A stretch of 64,000 nucleotides of DNA from Escherichia phage nomo, in sequence record MN850578.1, one strand, 5' to 3'. This document shows, in pieces, positions 1,348 through 57,435 of the stretch. Every line of letters starts with the position of its first letter. The first letter of the stretch is position 1. The position numbers and the translations under genes are program-made. The notes under the pieces were generated by a model. It had not been told where the DNA came from, searched no databases, and was given only the letters and a program-made list of their open reading frames with translations.

Positions 1348-1614
1348 ATGAAACTAACTCAGTTTTTATGGGGACTGGTTGCGGCATCTGATGACCCTAC
1401 GAAAGTATCCCAATCTAAGCTATGGTCGAACATAGGCATGGCGGTGATGACTGGGGTGTTTATTCATATGGGGTATAATGATACGCTTCCTGAATGGTAT
1501 GCGTGGATATATGCACCTTCAGTAGCCTGCCCCCAGCTTATTAGCAAATTCATCTCGCTCCGGTGGGGTTGCCAGCACCCTGACCACGTTAAAAACGAAG
1601 AGCAAAAAGCTTAA
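1348..1614 (+). CDS. hypothetical protein between fibre genes (possible fibre chaperone)
   Basis: RBS aagaggg upstream of ATG; 88 aa; context only. Confidence 0.4.
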   Translation: MKLTQFLWGLVAASDDPTKVSQSKLWSNIGMAVMTGVFIHMGYNDTLPEWYAWIYAPSVACPQLISKFISLRWGCQHPDHVKNEEQKA

Positions 1615-1623
1615 GGAGAAATC

Positions 1624-3369
1624 ATGGCGCAAGACATGACAAGCTTCGAGCAGGCGGTAGATCAAGTAATTGTTGATTCTGAACGTTTGCACTTGATTGT
1701 CAACGGTAACGCTGTGGATGAAGTTGTCGTAGAGGATGGGACCACTATCCCTACGGTACGAAAAGCCATGCTTGACACCCTTTATTTTAAAACGCCACCA
1801 ATCCCTTGGGCGTATGGTGCATCCACAACAGTTTTTAACCAGTTGTATGAGTTTAAAGGGGATACAGGCACTCAGTGGTGGTACGCCCCAGCAGCATCAA
1901 AATCTAACCCGGTTAGAATGCCAGCAGATCCTTCACAATCTCCAAACTGGAGATTATACACCGACTCTGCAGTAATGGCAAAATACTACGCAAAACTTAA
2001 CAGCCCAAGGTTCGAAGGTGACCCGCGAGTACCTACACCTCCAATGGACGATAAGTCAGAGTCCATAGCAAACACAGAGTTTGTTGTTGACTATGTTGAT
2101 AGCATATTTAAAGCCATGGAGGGGATGAAAGTTACTGTAGGATCTTTGGTGGTAAAAGGTCTTACAGAACTCGCTAACACTATAGTTGGTGGCACCCTTA
2201 CCTTACATGGACCTGTTAATGGGGCAGATTCTACTGCACGCTTTAGGAATCTAATCCTCACGGCAAATACTTCTACACTTACTTTTGCGTGGAGCGATCC
2301 TAAGCATGCAGACTGGAGAAGTACAGAGCTGCAACCTCATGAAGTGTCCACCCACAGGGTTATAGCTGACACTATAACTTCTGGGAAACCAGTGGCTAAT
2401 AATAACGATGTGCATTTTGATGGTCTGGGTAATAACTTTTTTGACTACGTGTACATTCGTGGTAATGCCATGAAGGCAGCAACCGAACCGACATTGCAGG
2501 TAGATGGGACCACCAGGGTTAAGAACCTTGAGGTGACAGGTACCGTTACAGGGATAACATACTCTGTCGATGGCACCATGATCTACCCTAGCTATATTGA
2601 AAGCACTGGTGATGCATTGATAAATGGCGATTTGGAGGTTGGCGGGTCTGTAGTTATTCGAGGTACGGCCTCTATCCAAAACATAGCTCTGAATACCTTA
2701 AGAGTCAATGAGCGTGCAACTTTTGAAGGAGAAGGGCTTACAGCCAACAAAGGTGTAATTACCGAGCTGACAACAACCACTTTAACTGCAACAACTGCAA
2801 ACTCTGAAAACTGCAACGTTACCCGCAACTTGCAGGTAAATGGAGATGTCAGTTTAAACGCAGCAGGGACTGGCACCACCTCTGTTCACAACCTTGAAAT
2901 ATCCGGCACGGTGACTGGGTGGTTGCCTGACTTCTCTAATGTCAACTTTGTCTGTAATGGCATTAACTCCAGTGGCAAGATAACCACCTCTCAAGAAATT
3001 GAGGCGGGTAAAACCATTACTGCCCCTACTTTCCACGCAGGAAAGGTAGATTTTGATTTAGAGGAGGTTGACGCGTCCAGTGGGACATGGACACCTAACG
3101 GGCAGGCCAGTATGTATGTTGTTCACGCGAAAGGGGATTTTACAATAGGACAGTGGCCTGGGACATCAGCGGAAGATAAACCTTATCCATTCACTGCGGT
3201 TATCTATGTAATTCAGGATGCTGTAGGTCACAACGTGACTTTGCACGATAAGTATGCTATCCTGTCGGCAACACCTGTTATTAACAACAAGGCTAACAGT
3301 GTTACCTTGCTGCAATTAACGTATTGTGGTGTTGGTGATATCGTAGACGTAGTAATTGCACAACGTTAA
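1624..3369 (+). CDS. putative tail fibre protein
   Basis: RBS aaggag; 581 aa with internal repeats (LEVTGTVTG, LEISGTVTG) typical of fibre shafts. Confidence 0.55.
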   Translation: MAQDMTSFEQAVDQVIVDSERLHLIVNGNAVDEVVVEDGTTIPTVRKAMLDTLYFKTPPIPWAYGASTTVFNQLYEFKGDTGTQWWYAPAASKSNPVRMPADPSQSPNWRLYTDSAVMAKYYAKLNSPRFEGDPRVPTPPMDDKSESIANTEFVVDYVDSIFKAMEGMKVTVGSLVVKGLTELANTIVGGTLTLHGPVNGADSTARFRNLILTANTSTLTFAWSDPKHADWRSTELQPHEVSTHRVIADTITSGKPVANNNDVHFDGLGNNFFDYVYIRGNAMKAATEPTLQVDGTTRVKNLEVTGTVTGITYSVDGTMIYPSYIESTGDALINGDLEVGGSVVIRGTASIQNIALNTLRVNERATFEGEGLTANKGVITELTTTTLTATTANSENCNVTRNLQVNGDVSLNAAGTGTTSVHNLEISGTVTGWLPDFSNVNFVCNGINSSGKITTSQEIEAGKTITAPTFHAGKVDFDLEEVDASSGTWTPNGQASMYVVHAKGDFTIGQWPGTSAEDKPYPFTAVIYVIQDAVGHNVTLHDKYAILSATPVINNKANSVTLLQLTYCGVGDIVDVVIAQR

Positions 3370-3377
3370 TATATCTA

Positions 3378-3403
3378 ACCGCTCCTGACGGGGCGGTTTT
3401 CTT
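3378..3403 (+). terminator. putative intrinsic terminator/attenuator
   Basis: Imperfect hairpin ccgctcc-tgac-ggggcgg followed by ttttctt. Confidence 0.35.
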
Positions 3404-3417
3404 ATCTGGAGAACACA

Positions 3418-6400
3418 ATGCTTCCAATCCCTTTGCTAAAACTTGGTCGTCATTTCCTCGATAAGAGGGGTGGAATTAAGGAACTTGCTGTTCTGTCATA
3501 CCCAATAGACAACAGTGATGGTACAAGCAACACAGTATCCTATGTAAATAGCTTAGCTATACTTTTTGATGATGGTCAGCTTAATATTACTGGCTATAAC
3601 AAGTTCGGAGAGTGCCGCACTGGGGATCGTAGCCCTATAAACTATCCGAGCGAAACAGCCTGGAATGTTGATCATGTGTGGAGAGCAGACCGCGCGTTTG
3701 TGATCCGGACTTTTGATAACCAGTTTTTCTACATCGGCTGCACTGCAGGTCTTATCGGATCCACTGCGGCAGGCGGTAATGATGTTTGCGTAAACGAGTG
3801 GACACCACTCCCAGAGCAGATTGTTAAAGGATTGCACCTTGACACCCACCCAGAACGCCTTATTGAGGTGATGGGCGGTATTAACAACACTGTCTGGGTT
3901 ATTGCAGAGGCAGAAGGTACTGGCATACTTAACCTGTATGGATCTGGTAACAACACCTACGGATCTTTGCATGTAGATAAAAATCAGCATGCAACTCCTG
4001 TAAAGATCGGCGAGACATCGGAAAATCCTGAAACAGGCCCTTGGAAAAACCCAAGCATCAACTGCGAGGTGCATGACAACTCGGTTATTTTTGGTGGTCC
4101 TAACGGATTCTGGATTGCAGGTTACGATTTCTTAAGAAATAACAGCAAAAACACACTAGTTTATCCAGCCGAGCATGTGACTCTTGACCAGTTTAAAGGC
4201 ATCCCGGTGGGCGAGACATGGAAAGGGTTCATGTGTGGACCTAATGGTGCAATTATAGCCACAGAAAGGATGCACAAACCTGATGACCAACAGCTTGTTA
4301 ACGTATTCTACGGGCAAGACGTCTGGGGAGATGACACATGGCGTTCCTTAAATATCACCTACACCCATGAGGTGATAATGGCTCGTGGATACGGCACAAG
4401 TGGCATTTTCTTCAATAATGGCACCAAACAGTATCGTGGCTTCTCTCGCAATCTGTGCAATGATATTGGTGCACAATCTGCAAACAACAGTCCTAGGGCT
4501 AATTTTATTCACTATCAGGCTCTGGCTACGGCTAAATACGTCGAGCAACGGATGCCAGTAAGCTGGACAGAAAGTGTTTATTTCCAGGGTATCCACAGAG
4601 AAGGTTTCTTAGGAACCTTTACTGTTGTTAATGGTAAACTTTGGTGGTCAGGTATCCCAAGGGGAAGTTTTACAGGCTCTAATAACCTGTTTGGCGGCAG
4701 ACTTAATAGTCAGGGGTTCACAGAGGTTCCTGAGAATTGGTATAAAAATGTCCCAGTAGACAGTTGGGGCGTTGATGATATTTTCGACGTTAATGGTGTT
4801 AGCAGTGTTAGCAATATCTACATTGGTGACACGGTCAAGATGAAATTGAAGCCTCAGCCAGAGGGAGCTACGTTCATCATTGACAAGATTGAACTGGTGA
4901 ATTCTGCAGGTACGGTTGTTACAGATGCAAATTACCAATTCTCCACCAACTGGAACCACGGCGGGGCCAACGAAGTTGTTGTTACCCAGTATAACAGAAA
5001 TGTTAACAGACGTGGCCTGTACTCTGTAAAAATAACCTATCATGACAAGCATGGCACAGGCAGAACTCACACGACAAGGACTTTGAACTGGAACACCATA
5101 GTTCCTGCGTATCCGTCCAACGGCAAGTGGCATACCGTTGGTAGAAACAAGCAGTTCCATGTTAACGATACTGTATACTTTGGGCTGAATGGGACCCAGC
5201 CTGCAGTAGAAGGGGATACATCGTATATGGTCAGACTCCACAGAATGGATGCTGGATCAGTCACTTATGATGTGACCCAAGAGATCTACGATCAAAGACG
5301 CGCCACGTATGACAATATTGTGAAAACACAAGCCTTGTGGGAGTTCAATCCTAATGGCAAGGGTGGTAAAATGTTGCAGGTTAATGAGCAGAACGGAACG
5401 TCGTTGACTGTTCACGAACACCCAGACCCTTGGCCTGATCCTGGAAAACCTCACCCGGGAGCTCGTACACTGAAAATTGTCAGCCATGATGCAGGATATT
5501 TCGGAATACGCTGGGAAGCTACAGTAAGATATGTCGACGGGACAACAAACAACATAGGGATTACACTTGGCGGCACTAGTGAAGATAGCTCGCTGAAAAT
5601 TGCCTACACGCCCAGAGGTATCTCTATTGATAATATGGATGTTGTTCGCAATGGTTACGGCGATGTGAATGTCAAAGTTACTCTTGGCGAACATCTTGGT
5701 GGGGAAAGGATCATCATGTATGCCTTTGATCATGATCCACGCACCAATGGAACTTATGCAAATCAGGCATGGAGTTACCTGATAAATGCACCTGAGCCGA
5801 ATACTAAAGAGTTCTACTATGGTATGAAGCGAGATGTGTGCAAGAAAACAGGAACACATGACTGGATTGCTATCTGCGTTAAAGATGAGCGCACAGCTTG
5901 GGATGAGCCTGTTAACAGATGGTTCATAGGTATTCCTACCAGAAGTGATAAGTATGTCGCAGAATATATTGTATGCATGGGCGGTACCAACCTAAACATG
6001 TGTTGGAACGAAGATGTAAACAAATACTCTGATTATGACTATATGAGGGATTACTCTTGTAATTTGTGGTTTAACCAAACTACAGGTTACCCTCCAAGAC
6101 AGGCGAGAGTAAACCCTGCAATCTTCACAGACACGCAGGTTTTCTTGACAAAACAGGCCAACGAGGTTCAGACCTTCAAGAATAAATACGATCCTAACAA
6201 GTGGTTCTACAACTGTTACGGCGCATTTTTCTGGGGACCTGGTGAGTTACCTGGTGGAGGATCTTGCTTGAATGAGGCAACTTACGCAAGTGACTACATC
6301 ATGGGGCAGGTCAAGAAGTATAAGATAATCCCCGGTCCTGAGACTTTGGGCAATGCAGTTGACCCTTATATCATCATGACTGCACTGAGATCAAACATGG

Positions 6401-9054
6401 ATGGGACATCCATGTCCATGCAAATTCCGGTAACAAACGGATACAAACGTGTTGTGATGATCATTAAGTGCGACCTGATAGGTAAACAAGTTCTTGCAGA
6501 AAACGGGACATCCACACATCCTTTTGAGATCGCTCTGCACTATCAGTTTGCTGACTCACCTTTTGCAGGGGATAAGAGAATATCTGATACAGACGCACAG
6601 CGTTGTAAGAAAGTATTGTTGGGTGCAGGTTGGTGGTGGTATGAGTTTGATTTAACAGACAAATTCACCGACACGTCTAAAGTTGTAACAGGACTTCGTC
6701 TAGACCTTGGCGAGAACATGCACAAAGCTGTTTGTGATGGCACCTATGGTGACCCTACAATATACCTAAAATATGTTTCTTTTGAGCATCCGGAAGATGT
6801 TGTCTACGGTCCAAAACTGAGATTGTTTGGCAGCTGGATTGCAAAAGATAGGGTAGGCATGGGTAAGAAGGTAAGAGGGTTCTTGGTTGATGCAGGAACA
6901 GAAGACATGCTGGTTAATGCAGTATGGCCTGAATTACCTGGGACTCAGTGGGACAACTCAGCCAAATCTATAAACTGGTTTAACATTCATAGGGCCATGT
7001 GGACCACTAACTGCTACTTGTGGAGAGAGCTTAACGATCAGGCCTTTGGATTCAGCGATGGTAGAAGGATGGCGATCATTTGCTGGACAACACTGCAAAG
7101 ATGTTATGACCATGACTATGAGATTGGGGGCAGGGCATGGAAAAATATCAGGGATAGAATCATAACCAATTTTGCAGACGACAACGGTGGTGGAGCACAT
7201 AACTTTGGCACAAGCCGACTCATCCATTTGAACGGATCCTCAGCCTACAAGAAAGAAGGTTACTCTGGGTCTATGATCGAGTGGGGTCTGGTGAAAGATG
7301 CTCGCGTATTGATGGGCCAGCAACTTGCTGCCGCAATAGGTCCCAGCGCAGTGCAGTCGGTTAAACCAGCGTGGTTCGATATTCCATTGTGGTCACCCGG
7401 AACACCGGGAACTGCTGCAATCAACCCTACCACTGGGGATCTGGAAATCTCCTGGGAAGACCTGAAGCAGGTCGGTGGTTGGGACAAAACAGGGTATCAG
7501 GTTCAATGGTGGAGGGCTGACGGATCTTTAGCCGCTGATGAGTTTGTTAAGGACAATTTCTACACTATGTCCTCTGCAAAAGCACAGCAATTATTTGGTC
7601 AGGCAACTCCGTCAACGATCACCATGTCTATGTGCTGTAAAGACAACAGGACTGGAGCTTTGGGGCCAAGGGTTGCTAAAGTTTTCTCAGGTATTAAATG
7701 GAATCTACCTGTCCAAAGTATTTCATGGAAGCAAATAGGTGATAACAAGCTGCTGGTTACCCCTGCCTGTCAGTTCAACGCAACTCTTAACGTTGATCCT
7801 GCTGTTGCGGCAAACTCAGCTAAAGCTTCTGACTTCTCTGTGTCTAACACTGCTATGGCAGATGTGAGGAAGATTGACACGCTGAACGCCAGAATTACCT
7901 GTAAAAACACTTATGGCACATTCCAAATCATCAACAACTTCACAGATGCTGATTCTAAGGTAGTGAGGACAGCAAGCCAGACTCTGAGTTTAGGAACTCT
8001 GGCCTATGCGGCCCTGATCACCGAACAGTCGGCAACACTCCAAGGAGGTGGTGTAGGCAAGTCCATTACAACACCTGTGTGGAAGCCAAATGAGTGGGTT
8101 GTGTTTGATTTGACTGTGGACTTCTCCAGCGATAATAACTGGACATGGGTAAGGAATTGTTTGTCACAGTTGATGGGCGGTCCAAGCTCCGTTAGTGATA
8201 GTCACGACTCTACTGACCCGAGTGTGTTCCAGGTAGGTAAAACTCACCCAGAGACTGGAGAAACGTTGCCTGACAGGAAGTATGCTTTGGTTTGCATCTC
8301 TTACGGGAAGGCAGATGTCGCCTTCTCAGGGACACACACTTATAACGGAACCTACAACTTCTCAAGGAAGTATAGTCTCAAAGCAGGGAACATTATAGAC
8401 GAGGTTGGTGCGCTGTATAATCCGGGCAACGGCATAGGGATTGTTGGTGGTAAACTGCAGATGCAGGAACCTTCTATTACCCCTTCCAACGTATCCGGGA
8501 TTAGAAAGACTTGGGAAAGTAGTAATACCAACATTGCAACAGTGGATGCCACCACAGGACTGGTAACATTTAAAGCTACTGGGAATGTCACCATAAAGTT
8601 TGTAGTTACAGATGATGCAGGGCGCAAAACGTCTTCAACATCTTTTACTGTCAAACAGATGGCACCACAGTGGAGAATGTGGATAGGTACAGCAACAAAC
8701 GGGGCATACCCTAATCCGGCAGGTACTTCTGGTATGAAGACTTTCTCTACAAGCAAACCGATGGAGTACGGCAGCGGTCCTAAGGTAGGGCAGATGGTGT
8801 ACTTTGGTGCGTATATTCCTGAAATTATAGGGCTTCCGAGAAGTCAGCTTCAGTTGCTGTTTGGGGCTGGTGTTGACGATCTTGCCACTTTCGGGTATAG
8901 CGACAACATCGAGGCTGCAAGGAGTTCAGGATGGGTAGGGTTCAGAATGGAGTCTGGAAAGGAAGGCAGGATTCTAGGGACAGCCTCTATAGGTGTTATG
9001 TTCCCTGGTGACCAGCAGTATCGTCTAGAAGCCTACGCAACCTTTTCTCGTTAA
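3418..9054 (+). CDS. giant tail fibre / virion structural protein (1878 aa) with Big_2-like Ig domain
   Basis: Single uninterrupted ORF; C-terminal segment TWESSNTNIATVDATTGLVTFKATGNVTIKFVVTDDAGRK resembles bacterial Ig-like group 2 domains. Confidence 0.6.
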   Translation: MLPIPLLKLGRHFLDKRGGIKELAVLSYPIDNSDGTSNTVSYVNSLAILFDDGQLNITGYNKFGECRTGDRSPINYPSETAWNVDHVWRADRAFVIRTFDNQFFYIGCTAGLIGSTAAGGNDVCVNEWTPLPEQIVKGLHLDTHPERLIEVMGGINNTVWVIAEAEGTGILNLYGSGNNTYGSLHVDKNQHATPVKIGETSENPETGPWKNPSINCEVHDNSVIFGGPNGFWIAGYDFLRNNSKNTLVYPAEHVTLDQFKGIPVGETWKGFMCGPNGAIIATERMHKPDDQQLVNVFYGQDVWGDDTWRSLNITYTHEVIMARGYGTSGIFFNNGTKQYRGFSRNLCNDIGAQSANNSPRANFIHYQALATAKYVEQRMPVSWTESVYFQGIHREGFLGTFTVVNGKLWWSGIPRGSFTGSNNLFGGRLNSQGFTEVPENWYKNVPVDSWGVDDIFDVNGVSSVSNIYIGDTVKMKLKPQPEGATFIIDKIELVNSAGTVVTDANYQFSTNWNHGGANEVVVTQYNRNVNRRGLYSVKITYHDKHGTGRTHTTRTLNWNTIVPAYPSNGKWHTVGRNKQFHVNDTVYFGLNGTQPAVEGDTSYMVRLHRMDAGSVTYDVTQEIYDQRRATYDNIVKTQALWEFNPNGKGGKMLQVNEQNGTSLTVHEHPDPWPDPGKPHPGARTLKIVSHDAGYFGIRWEATVRYVDGTTNNIGITLGGTSEDSSLKIAYTPRGISIDNMDVVRNGYGDVNVKVTLGEHLGGERIIMYAFDHDPRTNGTYANQAWSYLINAPEPNTKEFYYGMKRDVCKKTGTHDWIAICVKDERTAWDEPVNRWFIGIPTRSDKYVAEYIVCMGGTNLNMCWNEDVNKYSDYDYMRDYSCNLWFNQTTGYPPRQARVNPAIFTDTQVFLTKQANEVQTFKNKYDPNKWFYNCYGAFFWGPGELPGGGSCLNEATYASDYIMGQVKKYKIIPGPETLGNAVDPYIIMTALRSNMDGTSMSMQIPVTNGYKRVVMIIKCDLIGKQVLAENGTSTHPFEIALHYQFADSPFAGDKRISDTDAQRCKKVLLGAGWWWYEFDLTDKFTDTSKVVTGLRLDLGENMHKAVCDGTYGDPTIYLKYVSFEHPEDVVYGPKLRLFGSWIAKDRVGMGKKVRGFLVDAGTEDMLVNAVWPELPGTQWDNSAKSINWFNIHRAMWTTNCYLWRELNDQAFGFSDGRRMAIICWTTLQRCYDHDYEIGGRAWKNIRDRIITNFADDNGGGAHNFGTSRLIHLNGSSAYKKEGYSGSMIEWGLVKDARVLMGQQLAAAIGPSAVQSVKPAWFDIPLWSPGTPGTAAINPTTGDLEISWEDLKQVGGWDKTGYQVQWWRADGSLAADEFVKDNFYTMSSAKAQQLFGQATPSTITMSMCCKDNRTGALGPRVAKVFSGIKWNLPVQSISWKQIGDNKLLVTPACQFNATLNVDPAVAANSAKASDFSVSNTAMADVRKIDTLNARITCKNTYGTFQIINNFTDADSKVVRTASQTLSLGTLAYAALITEQSATLQGGGVGKSITTPVWKPNEWVVFDLTVDFSSDNNWTWVRNCLSQLMGGPSSVSDSHDSTDPSVFQVGKTHPETGETLPDRKYALVCISYGKADVAFSGTHTYNGTYNFSRKYSLKAGNIIDEVGALYNPGNGIGIVGGKLQMQEPSITPSNVSGIRKTWESSNTNIATVDATTGLVTFKATGNVTIKFVVTDDAGRKTSSTSFTVKQMAPQWRMWIGTATNGAYPNPAGTSGMKTFSTSKPMEYGSGPKVGQMVYFGAYIPEIIGLPRSQLQLLFGAGVDDLATFGYSDNIEAARSSGWVGFRMESGKEGRILGTASIGVMFPGDQQYRLEAYATFSR

Positions 9055-25803: not shown

Positions 25804-27129
25804 ATGAGTAAAACCAAATTAGAACTAACCTGGATAGGTAAAAACGAGCGCAAAAAGTTAGAGCCGCACATTTTGTTAGAAGATTCTAGCAAGTCTTACC
25901 ACAGCCAGAAAGTGACCGAAAACGATATTTTTGATAATAAACTGATTTTTGGAGATAACTTATTAGCATTGAAGGCGCTAGAGCAAGAGTATGCAGGCAA
26001 AGTGAAGTGTGTTTACATAGACCCACCATTCAATACTGGAAGGGCTTTTGAGCACTACGATGATAGCCTTGAGCATTCCATTTGGCTGGGCTTAATGAGG
26101 GATAGGTTAGAAATAATTCGTAATCTTCTAAGTGATGATGGGGTAATATTCGTTCACTTAGATGATTGCGAAATGGCGTATTTAAAAGTTTTGATGGACG
26201 AGATTTTTGGTCGTGCAAATCAGTTAAATACCATATCGATGACCACAAATTCCCCTTCGGGATTTAAGGCAACAGGAGCCACAGTTTTCTCCACAGCAAA
26301 CTTTTTGCTTGTATATGCAAAAGATCGCACCCAGAAACCGCTTAACAAAATCTATATACCTAAAGGGTATGATACAGGATATAACAAATACCTATTAAAC
26401 CCGGATGACCATTATAAAAATTGGACGTGGTGCGGTATTGCCGATGCGTTTGCAAAGGCCAATGGCTATAAAGATGCAAAAGAGGCCAAGAAAAAACTGC
26501 CTGATACATTCGATGATGAATTAGCACAATTCGCAATTGATAATGCAGAACGTGTATTTCAATCTGTTGCAATCGGCGGTGGTGCTAAAATAAAGAGAAA
26601 AGAAACTATCGAGAAGTCAAAGAAAGATAGGGATAAGGTTTATGTACATCCAAATGAAGATGTTGAAGGATTTTATATCGTAAATGGTAGGCAAATGGTC
26701 TTTTACTCCAACAGGCTTTTGGAAATTGACGGTGATATGCAACCTGCGGAACTAATAACTGATGTTTGGACAGACATTAGTTGGAATGGAATAGCAAATG
26801 AAGGCGGCGTTAGTTTCAAAAATGGGAAAAAACCAGAAGCGCTTTTGAAGCGAATTTTCGAAATGTGTACGCGAGAAGGCGATTTGGTATTGGATTCATT
26901 CGGTGGTTCGGGAACTACTGCTGCTGTAGCTCACAAGATGAAAAGACGTTGGATCTCAATCGAGCTAGGTGATCATTGTCATACCCATATTATTCCGCGC
27001 TTGGAAAAAGTGATCGATGGTGAAGATCAAGGTGGTATTTCTAAGTCTGTAAACTGGCAAGGTGGTGGTGGCTTCCGTTATTACAAACTTGCCCCGACCT
27101 TAATTGCGAAAGATAAGTCTGATCAATAA
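25804..27129 (+). CDS. DNA methyltransferase (beta-class N6-adenine or N4-cytosine)
   Basis: Motif IV VYIDPPFNTG precedes motif I LDSFGGSGTT, the beta-class order. Confidence 0.7.
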   Translation: MSKTKLELTWIGKNERKKLEPHILLEDSSKSYHSQKVTENDIFDNKLIFGDNLLALKALEQEYAGKVKCVYIDPPFNTGRAFEHYDDSLEHSIWLGLMRDRLEIIRNLLSDDGVIFVHLDDCEMAYLKVLMDEIFGRANQLNTISMTTNSPSGFKATGATVFSTANFLLVYAKDRTQKPLNKIYIPKGYDTGYNKYLLNPDDHYKNWTWCGIADAFAKANGYKDAKEAKKKLPDTFDDELAQFAIDNAERVFQSVAIGGGAKIKRKETIEKSKKDRDKVYVHPNEDVEGFYIVNGRQMVFYSNRLLEIDGDMQPAELITDVWTDISWNGIANEGGVSFKNGKKPEALLKRIFEMCTREGDLVLDSFGGSGTTAAVAHKMKRRWISIELGDHCHTHIIPRLEKVIDGEDQGGISKSVNWQGGGGFRYYKLAPTLIAKDKSDQ

Positions 27130-51690: not shown

Positions 51691-51882
51691 ATGAATGTTG
51701 AACAAGTTAGAAAGGTATTGGCGGTACTGCGTTATCATAATCATTGCAAGGTGAAGAATGATCCTGATTATCTTGATTCATCCCTTGAAGAGGATACACT
51801 ACAAGCCATAAGCAACATGCAAGAATTGCTTAAGCGTATGACAGAGAAAAACCGACCGGACTACATAGGGGGTAAAATATGA
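51691..51882 (+). CDS. hypothetical protein
   Basis: RBS aaagag. Confidence 0.45.
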   Translation: MNVEQVRKVLAVLRYHNHCKVKNDPDYLDSSLEEDTLQAISNMQELLKRMTEKNRPDYIGGKI

Positions 51883-52190
51883 TCGCTATTACGCCAACCG
51901 TTTTAGATTGGTATCGGCAACGCATAGCGCCTCCGCTGGCTATCTTCAAAGATGCGGAAGCAAAACAACGCCGGATCTCAATACATGAGATCATCAACCT
52001 TAACGCTGGAGGCACACCATACCGCCCAGGACCTGGCCGTGAGATGGACAATACGTTAGCGATCCTGAAGATACGCCGTAAACGGTCCTCCCTTACGCTG
52101 GACTCATTACACACAATGCAGCCTCCGTTCCAGGTGACCGGGAAACGGATCGCCAGGTCCTGGACAAAGGCCAATGATCGGACCGTATAA
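51879..52190 (+). CDS. hypothetical protein
   Basis: ATGA overlap; RBS aggggggt. Confidence 0.45.
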   Translation: MIAITPTVLDWYRQRIAPPLAIFKDAEAKQRRISIHEIINLNAGGTPYRPGPGREMDNTLAILKIRRKRSSLTLDSLHTMQPPFQVTGKRIARSWTKANDRTV

Positions 52191-52270
52191 ATAAAAGTGT
52201 TTTGGTACTGATTTTGGGGTTGACTTGTTCGGCCCCTTTTGCTATTCTTATTAAACGGGCGGCACTTGGG

Positions 52271-52742: not shown

Positions 52743-53006
52743 ATGAAACGTCTTGACCAGCTCAAACTAGTTCAATATATGGCTTATCGTGTTCTGGAAG
52801 TCCAGAAAGGTAGCAAAAAAGAGGTTTGCGAGAAAGCTTATAAGATCTTTACCCGCAAAAAAGATGACTGGATGCTACGCCAGACCAAAAAGGCTGACAT
52901 CTTGGGGTACCTGGAAGAAGAGATCCGACTTGAAGAACAAGAAGAGATCCGCCGTAGTGAGGCAGATTATCAGGCAGCTTGGGAAAACTGGATGAGCAAC
53001 AAATAA
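52743..53006 (+). CDS. hypothetical protein
   Basis: RBS aaagagga; preceded by hairpin gggccaaaaggccc. Confidence 0.55.
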   Translation: MKRLDQLKLVQYMAYRVLEVQKGSKKEVCEKAYKIFTRKKDDWMLRQTKKADILGYLEEEIRLEEQEEIRRSEADYQAAWENWMSNK

Positions 53007-53025
53007 TACAACAAGATGAACGGTC

Positions 53026-53050
53026 AGGGGCTTAAAGCCCCTTTCTTTTT
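53026..53050 (+). terminator. rho-independent terminator ending the plus-strand early block
   Basis: aggggc-ttaa-agcccct then ttctttttg. Confidence 0.7.
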
Positions 53051-55500
53051 GTCTTCTCTTTTCCTACCATAAACGGCCCTACCTGGCAAGTGGAATAATT
53101 GACGAGCCATCAATCCCACACACTGTACAAATATACATGGAAAATAACTATTGCATAATTTTTCATTGTGTGGTAGCAAGGCCATTTTTACACGTTTTTC
53201 CTTCCAAAATTGCACGTAATGCAGCATTTGCACAAAATTTAACCTGATGCATATCTTCAATAGCTTGTCAACAACTAAAAATCTTTATAAGTCATACACT
53301 TACATAACTACAAAAACGTTTTCTACGTGAAAAATCGAGTATAACTATAGCCGCCAGATCTCAGAATTTACGTACGCTCGCCATTCTATAGCCTGCTAAG
53401 CATTTATTCCAACCATAGAATAACTGAATAGTCAATACCTGCATAAAATAATTATTCGTGTAAACTGCATAACATAAATCGGCCCAGGTGTCAACATTTT
53501 TCGTAAACAGTCTGGAATTGTCACGTTAGGTTACCATAAGTAGAGAAATCTTTAGTCGTCTAATGTTTACTGTACGTTACTATATTAACTGAAATCATTA
53601 GATGACTAATAGAAAGATAAGAAATAATTAACAATACAATTATTTTATCTGTAACAATAAGGCAACTATGCAAACGAATGGCATGGCGCGACGGAGTCGC
53701 GACATAATATAAAAGCAGTAACCATCACCCCCGTGATAGTTTGTCTGCAAACTATTAATCAGATCATAGTTGCCTTGTATTTAGTTAATCATGACATAAC
53801 AAGCAAGGCAACTATAGATCTGCTAATAGTTGCCCTGCTTTTATATTATGTCATGCTAATTATAATCAGTGCGATTATTGTCATGTATAATTATTGTCAT
53901 GCAAACGAATGGCATGGCTGATTATCGGTGTGTAAACAGTCAATCATGTAAATGGTTAGCATGTGAACAATCAGGAATGTAAACAATCCAGTGTGTAAAC
54001 TAATAGGTGTGTAAAAGTGTCATGTTGTGTCAGTTAGGTCACATTATGTCAGACAAGTTTTTCTCCTCTTTGTCAAGTGCTGCATGAAAAATTTACAAGC
54101 TTGTATGGTAGCATTTTTGCGGCCCTGTTTACATTCAGGAGTGTATGTATAATCCTTGTTGTGTGGGCGTTTAGACGTCTGGACGGTCAGAAGTCTGCAG
54201 GTCAATATCTAATCTATTGGCTGCTAACTATATCCCCCACAAATAATAAGAAATATAATTGTTATGTGCGTAAACAGTAACCCATGTTATCAATCCCTGT
54301 ATGTATCGCCAGTTGTGCGCATAATGGGTATTATGTTAAATTGCCCGTAATGATAACTATTCTCACAATGATAGGTATTCTCATTCACCCCCACAAGATA
54401 GGTTGCAAATGTTGTGCCACTGTGTGAACGGCCTCACCTATTAATTTGCCTCACTGCCTCGATATTTGAGAATTGTTATAAGAATGAGAAGTATTCCCAT
54501 TCCGTCCGCCTGGCAGCACTCCAGTCGCTACGGCTCCTGACAGGGCAGCACTCCTGTAGGTCAGGTCAAAATCGTGGTAGAACTGGACCTGTTCGGATAT
54601 TTCTGGCTGACTCTTCAGGTCTGTGTGGGAAAAGCCAACCCCTCCGGCGGGGCAGGGGATATCTGCAGGAAAATTGCAGGTCAATTAAAAATTTACGTGG
54701 TGTATGAAGCGCTCTTCAGGCAAGGCATGTATTAGAGGATGAAACCCTCTTCAGGCAATGATATTTGTGGGTGGGATATTTGCTGGAAAGCCAGATATGA
54801 CGGGACTCCCGGCGGGGCAGGGGTAGTACAGACAGGGAAAATATGAGGATGTAATTGGGGAAATTGATCAGACAGGTAGAGTATGGAATATGTTACAGGT
54901 ATGTTAAATATGGAGGTTGAATATCTGTAGGATTTGTGTGTAAAATCAAAGACTTAAGGGGTGTTGTGGTATTTTCTATAAATAATTCAAGTTTAATAGG
55001 CAATATTTGTCTCTATCCGCTTTGTGTGGTAAACAGATTCAGATGAAATTGGTTTACAAGTGTATACATAATATACAAATTAAAGATACAAGAAACCCCC
55101 CTCCCCCCTCGGCTACCATTCACCTTTTCCTCTGACTGGTACTTAAACACTTATTCAGACTCTTCAGGTTATCACCCATATATCATATGGCAGTGACTGG
55201 TGTCCTCCGGCCCCTCTTTCGTCACCCGTCCGCTTCGCCATGCTAATGCCATAGCCAATGGTTCGGTTGTTCACCCTGTTCACTCAGGTGTATCTCCATA
55301 CCCCTTCAAACCGAAGAGAACAGAAAACCCGAATTACTCGGTAAAAGAAAAGAGAAGAACTTAATTTTATCAGGATAGGCAAGAATGTCAAGGCATGACT
55401 GCTCACTAAACAAGCAAACAGTCATGTGTGGAAGGTAAGTGATTGTGGTGGTGGGAAATTTAGTTGAAAGATGTGTTATAGGTGCGCTTCCAGCACTTTA
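53051..55500. repeat. 2.4-kb non-coding, AT-rich, repeat-dense region between convergent gene blocks
   Basis: No ORF with RBS; contains palindrome ggcaactatagatctgctaatagttgcc (53797-53824), inverted ggcaactat copies, direct repeats gcaaacgaatggcatgg (53660, 53891), GTAAACAG-type repeats, about 75-bp imperfect direct repeats with ccggcggggcagggg (54643, 54799) and ctcttcagg (x4). Confidence 0.7.
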
Positions 55501-55520
55501 GCCTGGCAGCTAATTGTGTG

Positions 55521-55736
55521 TCAGTCCAGCGGTTCATCCTCTACTTCACTGAAATCAATGTTCATGGTCTCTTCCCAACCATCGATCTCAGCACAAGAGT
55601 GGAGTTCTTTAGGGTTTACTCCCAAAGCCTCAGCAACAGAGTCTATATTTAACACCTCTGGTAGGTATGATTCATCGAATTCAAGGTAAATCAGGCCACG
55701 AGTGTTGTCAGCCCCACCAAATATTTCTATCTTCAT
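55521..55736 (-). CDS. hypothetical acidic protein
   Basis: RBS gaggag. Confidence 0.5.
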   Translation of the reverse strand: MKIEIFGGADNTRGLIYLEFDESYLPEVLNIDSVAEALGVNPKELHSCAEIDGWEETMNIDFSEVEDEPLD

Positions 55737-57129: not shown

Positions 57130-57435
57130 TTATTCTACAGAGCGTTTGAACAGAATGTCTGCCTCGGACATGTGCTCAACCTCTTCTTCGATTTTAGCTC
57201 GACGTTTTTCAGCCTCATAGCGAATATCGAACTCGGTAGCCACCAGAGATTTGATGAATTTAGGAGAATACAGGTGATCCTGCTTCTCAACGAGAATGAT
57301 ATCCTTAATGGCATCTTTCAGATCTTTAATCTGAAGTTGGAGTTCCACCAGTTCTTCGATTGTCTTGCGAAGGCGATCACGCTCTGCAGTGTCAGAAGGA
57401 AGAGAGGTGAACAGTTCAACTTTAGATTTAGCCAT
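57130..57435 (-). CDS. hypothetical coiled-coil protein
   Basis: RBS aaggag; plus-strand overlapping ORF rejected. Confidence 0.5.
   Translation of the reverse strand: MAKSKVELFTSLPSDTAERDRLRKTIEELVELQLQIKDLKDAIKDIILVEKQDHLYSPKFIKSLVATEFDIRYEAEKRRAKIEEEVEHMSEADILFKRSVE

Follow-up and report, generated by a model that had tools for sequence, protein, structure and literature searches.

In the 64,000-nt stretch of Escherichia phage nomo analysed here (MN850578.1; hereafter the window), a gene-free gap of 2,470 bp (53051-55520, 39.8 % GC) lies between two converging gene blocks, and we consider it highly probable that this gap is the genome-terminus region, or concatemer junction, of a phage with short exact direct terminal repeats in the style of T7. 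The window derives from a Vequintavirus, an rV5-like myophage of E. coli with a genome of ∼136 kb. A sequence-only reading of this repeat-dense region had offered a replication origin, a packaging or terminal-repeat boundary, or loci for non-coding RNAs as explanations; its terminal-repeat option is borne out by the relatives, whose 459-bp direct terminal repeat (DTR) maps to the middle of the gap. The same reading had ended the plus-strand block at a terminator at 53026-53050 and the minus-strand operon at 55521, both of which we confirmed, although its right-hand limit of 55500 had to be moved to 55520.

The placement of the repeat comes from the records of related phages. A total of 121 phage records match 53051-55500 at 91-97.5 % identity, all of them Vequintavirus and with Escherichia phage MaxBurger as the best match, and the gap was aligned from 17 relatives, which together with the window gives 18 genomes. 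Several GenBank records start or stop within the gap, and they do so at two recurrent positions. The record of EdH4 (MK327930) carries an exact 459-bp repeat at both ends, which blastn places at 54052-54510 of the window. The same segment is found at both ends of HdK5, Gotham (where it is annotated as repeat_region 1-459), ECP2309 and YN3, and in Pr121LW, ECP2303, EcoIv14a_Aya and bov11CS3 (version 2) the record begins or terminates at a boundary. Boundaries that are identical in at least five Vequintavirus records indicate fixed, sequence-specific ends. The window itself contains a single copy of the repeat, which would fit a collapsed assembly.

Sequence conservation across the 18 genomes changes within a few bases of each DTR boundary. 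The repeat is 93-98 % identical and, except for a tandem duplication in CM1, free of indels of ≥ 15 nt. To its left, identity in 53850-54045 is 0.6-0.7, indels are numerous and the copy number of a short repeat varies among the genomes, with the motif itself persisting; conservation is then regained a few bp before 54052. To its right, identity in 54521-54680 is again 0.6-0.7, and relatives carry deletions (54521-54552 or 54547-54578, and 54659-54678) as well as insertions. This local hypervariability is attributable to the slippage-prone repeat arrays at both boundaries. At the boundaries themselves, TGTCAGACAAGTTTT on the left is invariant in 18/18 genomes and GCCTGGCAGC on the right is kept in 15/18. 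Thus, it is because the boundaries are shared and homologous, the repeat is conserved and indel-free, and the flanks are indel-prone that we interpret the gap as a concatemer junction.

The interior of the repeat has distinctive features of its own. All four TTCTCA hexamers of the gap fall within the DTR, where 0.3 would be expected, and an 18-nt period is present at 54349-54383 (AATGATAACTATTCTCAC × 1.9, by TRF). It is only this 18-nt tandem that is marked by the GenBank 'repeat_region' of magaca, naswa, pangalan and Alma, and these annotations were therefore discarded as evidence of a DTR. A second exact copy of GCCTGGCAGC (∼0.1 expected in the window) is present at 55501-55510, 20 nt from the last minus-strand gene; it was considered as a second cut site and rejected as probably not one, since most relatives have GCCGGGCAGC at this position, within a local TTAGC...GCTAA hairpin. 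Additionally, Shigella phage CM1 (MK962749, record positions 1389-3518) contains a 523-nt tandem duplication comprising ∼62 nt of upstream sequence and the terminal repeat (window equivalent 54017-54510), the first copy of which stops exactly at the repeat boundary (window equivalent 54510). Phage I29 (ON286975) looks similar, and the CM1 duplication may be either a true junction rearrangement or an assembly artefact of doubled coverage.

Termini of the same kind are found in two further genera. Cronobacter phage PBES 02 (Certrevirus) is classed in the PhageTerm paper as 'DTR (short)', its termini being 200 and 642, and in Klebsiella phage KPP-1 (Mydovirus) a DTR of 514 bp occupies 116316-116829; in both phages the repeat is enclosed in a gap of ∼1.75 kb that converging blocks flank. 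Global alignments among the three repeats gave z-scores of 4.2 (PBES 02), 4.7 (KPP-1) and 7.5, and of ∼0 in the opposite orientation. Moreover, the independently determined ends of PBES 02 and KPP-1 fall at nucleotides homologous to the window boundaries. On the left, tgtca|GACAAG of the window aligns with tgcct|GGCAAA (PBES 02) and tgcta|AACACA (KPP-1), with TGTCAAG 19-20 nt inside each; on the right, CCGCC|tggcagca aligns with ATGCC|tggcagca and CCGTC|tagcacc, with GATATTT 42-50 nt inside each. The consensus of the cut site across the three genera is YC|TRGCA. Terminus 200 of PBES 02 (TTTTGCC-T|GGCAAAA) has the same geometry as the left cut of the window, terminus 642 reads GCC|TGGCAGCA, and position 116316 of KPP-1, reverse complemented, reads GTC|TAGCACC. 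In both the window and PBES 02, the two cuts adjoin the centre base of a small palindrome.

Further sequence elements are common to these genera. A core island within the DTR aligns with PBES 02 and with reverse-complemented KPP-1, and the 14-mer GTATTATGTTAAAT that it contains is common to the window and PBES 02. ATAAYnATTCTCA sites number four in the window DTR and, over the 7.5 kb of PBES 02 that was covered, seven, of which five lie in or beside the terminal gap. GATATTT keeps its place and direction relative to the cut in PBES 02 and KPP-1: it occurs at -49, +86, +250 and +265 in the window, at -50, +24 and +138 in PBES 02, and at -42, +86 and +103 in KPP-1. The motifs GATATTT, CCCGGCGGG and CTCTTCAGG are shared across genera on the same flank and in the same orientation; this flank of PBES 02 also has CCCGGCGGGAGAGGG and CCTCTTCAGGC. 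Over the whole gap, the window shares with PBES 02 only slightly more k-mers than controls do (z∼2), the signal being concentrated in the DTR and the right flank. In its left 'non-coding' flank, PBES 02 (KT353109) also has, at 149027-149272, an unannotated and hydrophobic-looking open reading frame (ORF) of 81 aa followed by a clear terminator, and its true gap on that side is therefore ∼0.6 kb.

We propose that packaged DNA would begin at 54052, run rightwards round the genome, pass through 53051-54051 and end at 54510, with 54052-54510 found at either end of every virion chromosome, but only once per concatemer junction and in collapsed assemblies. The pairing of motifs with proteins and the chemistry of cutting and duplication are inferred here by analogy with T7 and T3: terminase would recognise the repeated sites inside and beside the repeat and would cut at two small odd-centred palindromes, TGTC-A|GACA and GCC|T-GGC, whereupon strand-displacement synthesis would duplicate the repeat and provide a copy for each daughter. 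In the next infection, annealing of the repeats or recombination between them would join genomes into concatemers. A Pfam screen of ten window ORFs of ≥ 380 aa, which did not include the 1878-aa ORF at 3418-9054, revealed no terminase, and the terminase gene presumably lies outside the window. Transcription from the two converging blocks would not reach the junction: a hairpin terminator would stop it on the left, and a C-rich, rut-like stretch may do so on the right. Read in the direction in which transcription arrives, both flanks of the DTR are rich in C and poor in G, as would be the plus-strand RNA of 53051-53650, which suggests Rho-dependent insulation of the junction; on the right, 54830-54990 might act as the Rho-dependent stop.

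Several points weigh against this interpretation. The ends in the window are placed by homology alone (the repeat is 95-98 % identical to those of relatives), and KPP-1 does not share the palindromy at the cut. Furthermore, Kropinski et al. (2013) called the rV5 genome circularly permuted, a description that rests on assembly; a 2021 announcement gave the PhageTerm result 'circular permutated' for four vequintaviruses (the bov phages) sequenced from Nextera libraries; and in a 2026 paper BpE1AUH was classed as 'headful' by PhageTerm, a call that is left unexplained. If these descriptions held generally, the genome would be circularly permuted and packaged by the headful mechanism, the gap would be only a pac site or unrelated to packaging, and the repeats in the records would reflect assembly conventions. 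We regard this as very unlikely, given that the same boundaries recur in records from several laboratories, that homologous boundaries were obtained in two other genera by read-based methods, and that the boundary nucleotides are conserved, with a sharp step in conservation at both boundaries. The bov libraries, moreover, are unable to show termini, as the PhageTerm authors state that Nextera libraries lose them. It is still less probable that the gap holds small protein genes which lack annotation here, as some GenBank entries would imply: automatic annotation places 12 coding sequences in Mangalyan and seven in JLBYU08, and ORFs in 55160-55430 are open in most relatives. These ORFs remain open, however, because the sequence there hardly varies, and the longer ORFs are all broken in most or all relatives. 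None of the 15 gap ORFs (35-97 aa) combines conservation in the 17 relatives with an excess of substitutions at the third codon position, whereas the control gene at 55521-55736 has 3/1/9 variable columns by codon position, and the five gap ORFs submitted (39-97 aa) belong to no PHROG family. The earlier view that the region is non-coding is thus upheld, and conserved proteins, which would have refuted it, are not encoded here in the 17 relatives. With respect to RNA genes, Rfam 15 returned no match at the gathering score in the whole window, the sole gap match at E ≤ 5 being due to chance (E = 4.7), and ARAGORN detected no tRNA or tmRNA in the window.

A second conserved element, a 338-bp block, lies towards the right edge of the gap. 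It starts with a sigma-70 promoter on the minus strand (TTGACA at 55391-55386, a 16-nt spacer and TGaTAAAAT at 55372-55364), which scores 11/12 with a TG, points at the terminal repeat, and agrees in class and orientation with many TTGACA promoters found in the adjacent minus-strand block and elsewhere in the window. In the most divergent relative both hexamers are kept and the spacer changes from 16 to 18 nt. The ∼265 nt after the promoter would be G-rich as RNA (32.5 % G, 16.6 % C) and end at G6AG6 (C6TC6 at 55096-55108 on the plus strand), a tract that resembles mitochondrial CSBII; beyond it come a variable AT-rich spacer and then the stretch whose RNA would be C-rich and G-poor. The promoter and the G-tract form abrupt limits to the conservation of the block, one at each side. 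When 55075-55360 was folded as RNA, neither strand gave a thermodynamic signal relative to shuffles (z = -0.57 and 0.02), and the right flank of PBES 02 (335 bp) contains nothing that corresponds to the block. A blastn search of 5,426 E. coli genomes gave no match, and the block is therefore not host-derived. The block might encode a non-coding RNA, serve as an origin primed by transcription, or act as a promoter coupled to packaging.

We tentatively hold it possible that the block is the gene for a non-coding RNA of at least ∼265 nt, transcribed early from the minus strand by host RNA polymerase and having a regulatory or packaging-coupled role. The near-consensus promoter, matching those of the adjacent block in class and orientation, the retention of its hexamers despite the altered spacer, and the sharply delimited conservation are all in keeping with such a gene, as are the lack of a ribosome-binding site or PHROG match for the ORFs of the block and a 5' pyrimidine run that could pair with the 3' G-run only in the minus-strand RNA. 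Nevertheless, no Rfam family is matched even at E ≤ 5, the fold has a z-score of -0.57, substitutions are too few for a covariation test, no canonical terminator is present at the G-tract, and no homologue was seen in PBES 02; a literature search found no relevant Vequintavirus transcriptome. A more specific version, in which a host-polymerase-driven untranslated G-rich unit aimed at the repeat would act as an R-loop primer for a T7-like replisome, with an origin next to the genome end, or would be the host-polymerase equivalent of the transcription-coupled start of concatemer cutting in T7, strikes us as unlikely. We are also doubtful, if somewhat less so, that the gap additionally or instead holds a replication origin. 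Such an origin could take the form of GTAAAC-type sites binding an initiator next to AT-rich DNA, or the G-rich transcript from the promoter at 55391 could form an R-loop at G6AG6 and prime synthesis into 55010-55092, in a manner likened to ColE1, T4 oriF and mitochondrial CSBII. The AT-rich left flank (35 % GC) and spacer (30 % GC), the motif arrays unique to the gap, two copies of TGTGTAAAA that fit the relaxed DnaA box TTWTNCACA, and the order of promoter, 265-nt G-rich conserved block, G6AG6 and AT-rich DNA would all suit an origin, and a T7-like replisome (DnaB/gp4-type helicase and family A polymerase) is encoded. No strict DnaA box is present, however, the core of the repeats being GTAAAC and not a DnaA box; the GGCAACTAT complex of the left flank is largely deleted in FV3, the promoter and G-tract block is absent from the 335-bp right flank of PBES 02, and the motifs are equally well explained as packaging sites. 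A scan for DnaA, IHF and CRP sites gave only relaxed DnaA-box matches overlapping GTGTAAA repeats and a wrongly spaced CRP-like match, and these candidates were dropped. The switch in GC skew coincides with the switch in transcription direction, and is therefore uninformative with regard to an origin; Kropinski et al. (2013) likewise found that GC-skew changes follow transcription direction.

The remaining features of the gap (Table 1) are mostly repeats, and those listed in the sequence-only reading are all present and far from chance. The left kilobase of the gap has 35 % GC against 43.8 % for the window, and its flank at 53051-53650 holds three isolated GTAAAC motifs (53460+, 53503+ and 53565-). 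In the adjoining palindromic complex, GGCAACTAT occurs four times (53661+, 53766-, 53807+ and 53826-) and nowhere else in the window, and a perfect 18-nt inverted repeat joins 53701-53718 and 53835-53852. The exact 20-nt direct repeat ATGCAAACGAATGGCATGGC is found at 53668 and 53899. The 28-bp palindrome that had been placed at 53797-53824 does exist, but with other coordinates, having 15-nt arms at 53801-53815 and 53826-53840 and a 10-nt spacer. FV3 lacks most of this complex, through deletion of 53688-53721 and 53736-53871, and for this reason the complex is probably dispensable or accessory. A palindrome of similar kind, ATAGTTAC-N5-GTAACTAT, is present in the flank of KPP-1 that corresponds to this one. 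Copies of GTGTGTAAA number four in the gap and none in the remaining 61.5 kb, and those of GTAAACAG five in the gap versus two elsewhere in the window. Helical phasing was considered for the TGT[AC]A array and rejected, as its spacings of 8-31 nt are not clean. To the right of the DTR, the GATATTT motifs at 54596 and 54760 each head an imperfect unit of ∼65-75 nt that closes with CCGGCGGGGCAGGGG (54644 and 54809), and CTCTTCAGG is present in four copies (54611, 54712, 54747 and 55160). At the spacer 55010-55092, C7, A135 and Mangalyan have an alternative sequence.

Table 1. Features in and around the gap of the window (a point in the strand column marks a feature without a strand)
Feature	Position	Strand	Remarks
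Last plus-strand gene before the gap	52743-53006	+	phrog_11701
Intrinsic terminator closing the plus-strand block	53026-53050	+	Stem AGGGGCTTAAAGCCCCT and T-run
AT-rich left flank	53051-53650	.	GC 23-41 %, GC skew -0.1 to -0.4; 87-98 % identical in 18 genomes
Operator-like palindromic complex	53659-53852	.	GGCAACTAT half-sites × 4, forming two palindromes 60 bp apart, within an 18-nt inverted repeat
Hypervariable array of short GTGTAAAC / TGTCA repeats	53850-54051	+	Adjoins the left end of the DTR
Putative left cut-site palindrome TGTC-A-GACA	54047-54055	.	Repeat begins at 54052, right after the centre base; EdH4 record end
DTR, 459 bp	54052-54510	.	Exact repeat at both EdH4 record ends maps here
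Core island common to three genera	54315-54341 (27 nt)	+	GTGCGCATAATGGGTATTATGTTAAAT
Four ATAACnATTCTCA-type sites inside the DTR	54349-54490		54360+, 54378+ (18-nt tandem), 54467-, 54485-
GATATTT motifs	54461 (inside DTR); 54596, 54760, 54775 (outside)	+	Region 54461-54823
Putative right cut-site palindrome GCC-T-GGC	54508-54514	.	Repeat stops at 54510, just before the centre base; EdH4 record start
Second hypervariable zone	54512-54680	+	32-nt unit GGCAGCACTCC... in one or two copies, and other indels
Near C-free stretch	54830-54990	+	9 C in 161 nt; minus-strand RNA C-rich, G-poor, rut-like
Variable AT-rich spacer, 30 % GC	55010-55092	.	Inverted GTAAAC pair, 55029+ and 55052-
Ultra-conserved block, 338 bp	55093-55430	-	98-100 % identity in 18 genomes vs ∼90-92 % in the adjacent gene
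Last gene of the minus-strand block	55521-55736	-	71 aa, phrog_12108

In the neighbourhood of the gap, most relatives carry an extra 420-nt gene together with a second copy of the terminator, inserted at 53015-53025 (rV5 ORF164, naswa_157 and Murica151, the last labelled 'Rel homology domain'); the terminator at 53026-53050 is thus duplicated in the relatives that have this gene. The gene is absent from the window, FV3, Alma and IMGVR2, and magaca is uninformative because its record starts just downstream. Further upstream, a segment of ∼400 bp (51800-52200) that includes a 103-aa ORF (51879-52190) has no counterpart in naswa, Alma and two IMG/VR contigs, which align on both sides of it, and appears to be a variable or inserted gene. 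On the other side, 57133-57435 on the minus strand encodes a 101-aa protein (phrog_639, 'transcriptional regulator') whose sequence is the same (100 % identity) in virtually every Vequintavirus record. Homologues occur in several other groups of enterobacterial and Aeromonas myophages, including PBES 02/CR8/CR9, GAP31, 4MG and Klebsiella phages. The protein, a candidate for binding DNA, is encoded at a distance of 1.6 kb from the gap. The attempt to reach other genera by synteny through this regulator was abandoned, as in KP12 the gene is not near the terminus, and an IMG/VR search with a flanking protein returned only two loci. Other genes of the window specify a PIF1 helicase, a DnaB/gp4-type helicase, a family A DNA polymerase and a DNA methylase, the last being of the N6_N4 type (25804-27126). 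GATC occurs at 325 sites in the window (∼1 per 197 bp), and at only four in the gap compared with the ∼12.5 expected. Among the database records, nineteen MG0656xx entries designated 'UNVERIFIED: Campylobacter phage' (C7, A135, C14 and others) are Vequintavirus by sequence and by NCBI taxonomy; their Campylobacter host label is probably wrong or due to contamination.

The core facts are already known, in that both the non-coding gap and a repeat of ∼458 bp have been published. Kropinski et al. (2013, Fig. 2) marked the same locus, which separates rV5 ORF163 from ORF164, by a grey box labelled 'non-coding', and Korf et al. (2019) linearised the contigs of EdH4 and HdK5 at 'distinct start and end points', reporting 458-bp terminal redundancies in one sentence; a terminal repeat of 328 bp is reported in the literature for Schickermooser (phAPEC8-like). 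What is added here is the exact placement of the ends, the map of boundaries and motifs across genera, and the link between the rV5 non-coding box and terminal redundancy. In a limited literature search we found no connection of the repeat to the rV5 box, and no description of the cut sites, the internal motifs or the hypervariable flanks.

These findings bear on how such genomes are presented and used. Most of the at least 119 public Vequintavirus genomes were deposited with arbitrary starts, and for some of them circular permutation is claimed. Ends placed at 54052 and 54510, along with the signature TGTCA|GACAAG and CCGCC|TGGCAGC, would allow therapeutic-candidate phages to be oriented and annotated consistently, and fixed ends argue against headful packaging, which has a bearing on the risk of generalised transduction. 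The findings also provide candidates, common to three genera, for the sites that terminase recognises and cuts. If the proposed architecture of a G-rich unit with YC|TRGCA, GATATTT and ATTCTCA is true, it would constitute the first cis-acting packaging and replication map for Vequintavirinae.

With regard to known systems, the injection-stop-signal region of T5 is non-coding, abounds in repeats and palindromes, and has DnaA boxes within the terminal repeat; the gap resembles it in the density of its direct and inverted repeats and in having sequences similar to DnaA boxes close to a genome end. The T5 repeat is ∼10 kb long and contains genes, however, and two-step DNA transfer is not evidenced for rV5-like phages. 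EdH4 and HdK5 (458 bp), PBES 02 (∼443 bp) and KPP-1 (514 bp) have the same element as the window, homologous in sequence, boundaries and gap position, although the respective papers give only the length or the coordinates of the repeat. The 'non-coding' box of rV5 is likewise the same locus as the gap, and has been described only as ORF-free. As in T7 and T3, the repeat is short and exact (160-230 bp in T7/T3), the ends are sequence-specific and the region is gene-free. Short repeat arrays also adjoin the terminal repeat in T7. The window differs from T7 in that the repeat is ∼3 times longer and shares no sequence similarity with it, that both gene blocks converge on the junction and do not run through it, and that the phage is a myovirus of ∼136 kb without a phage RNA polymerase, its promoter being of the host sigma-70 type. 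According to the T7 literature, recognition sequences are located near the termini, a promoter reads towards the junction, and a polymerase pause there starts maturation; the window resembles T7 in having a strong promoter, at 55391 on the minus strand, that is aimed at the repeat.

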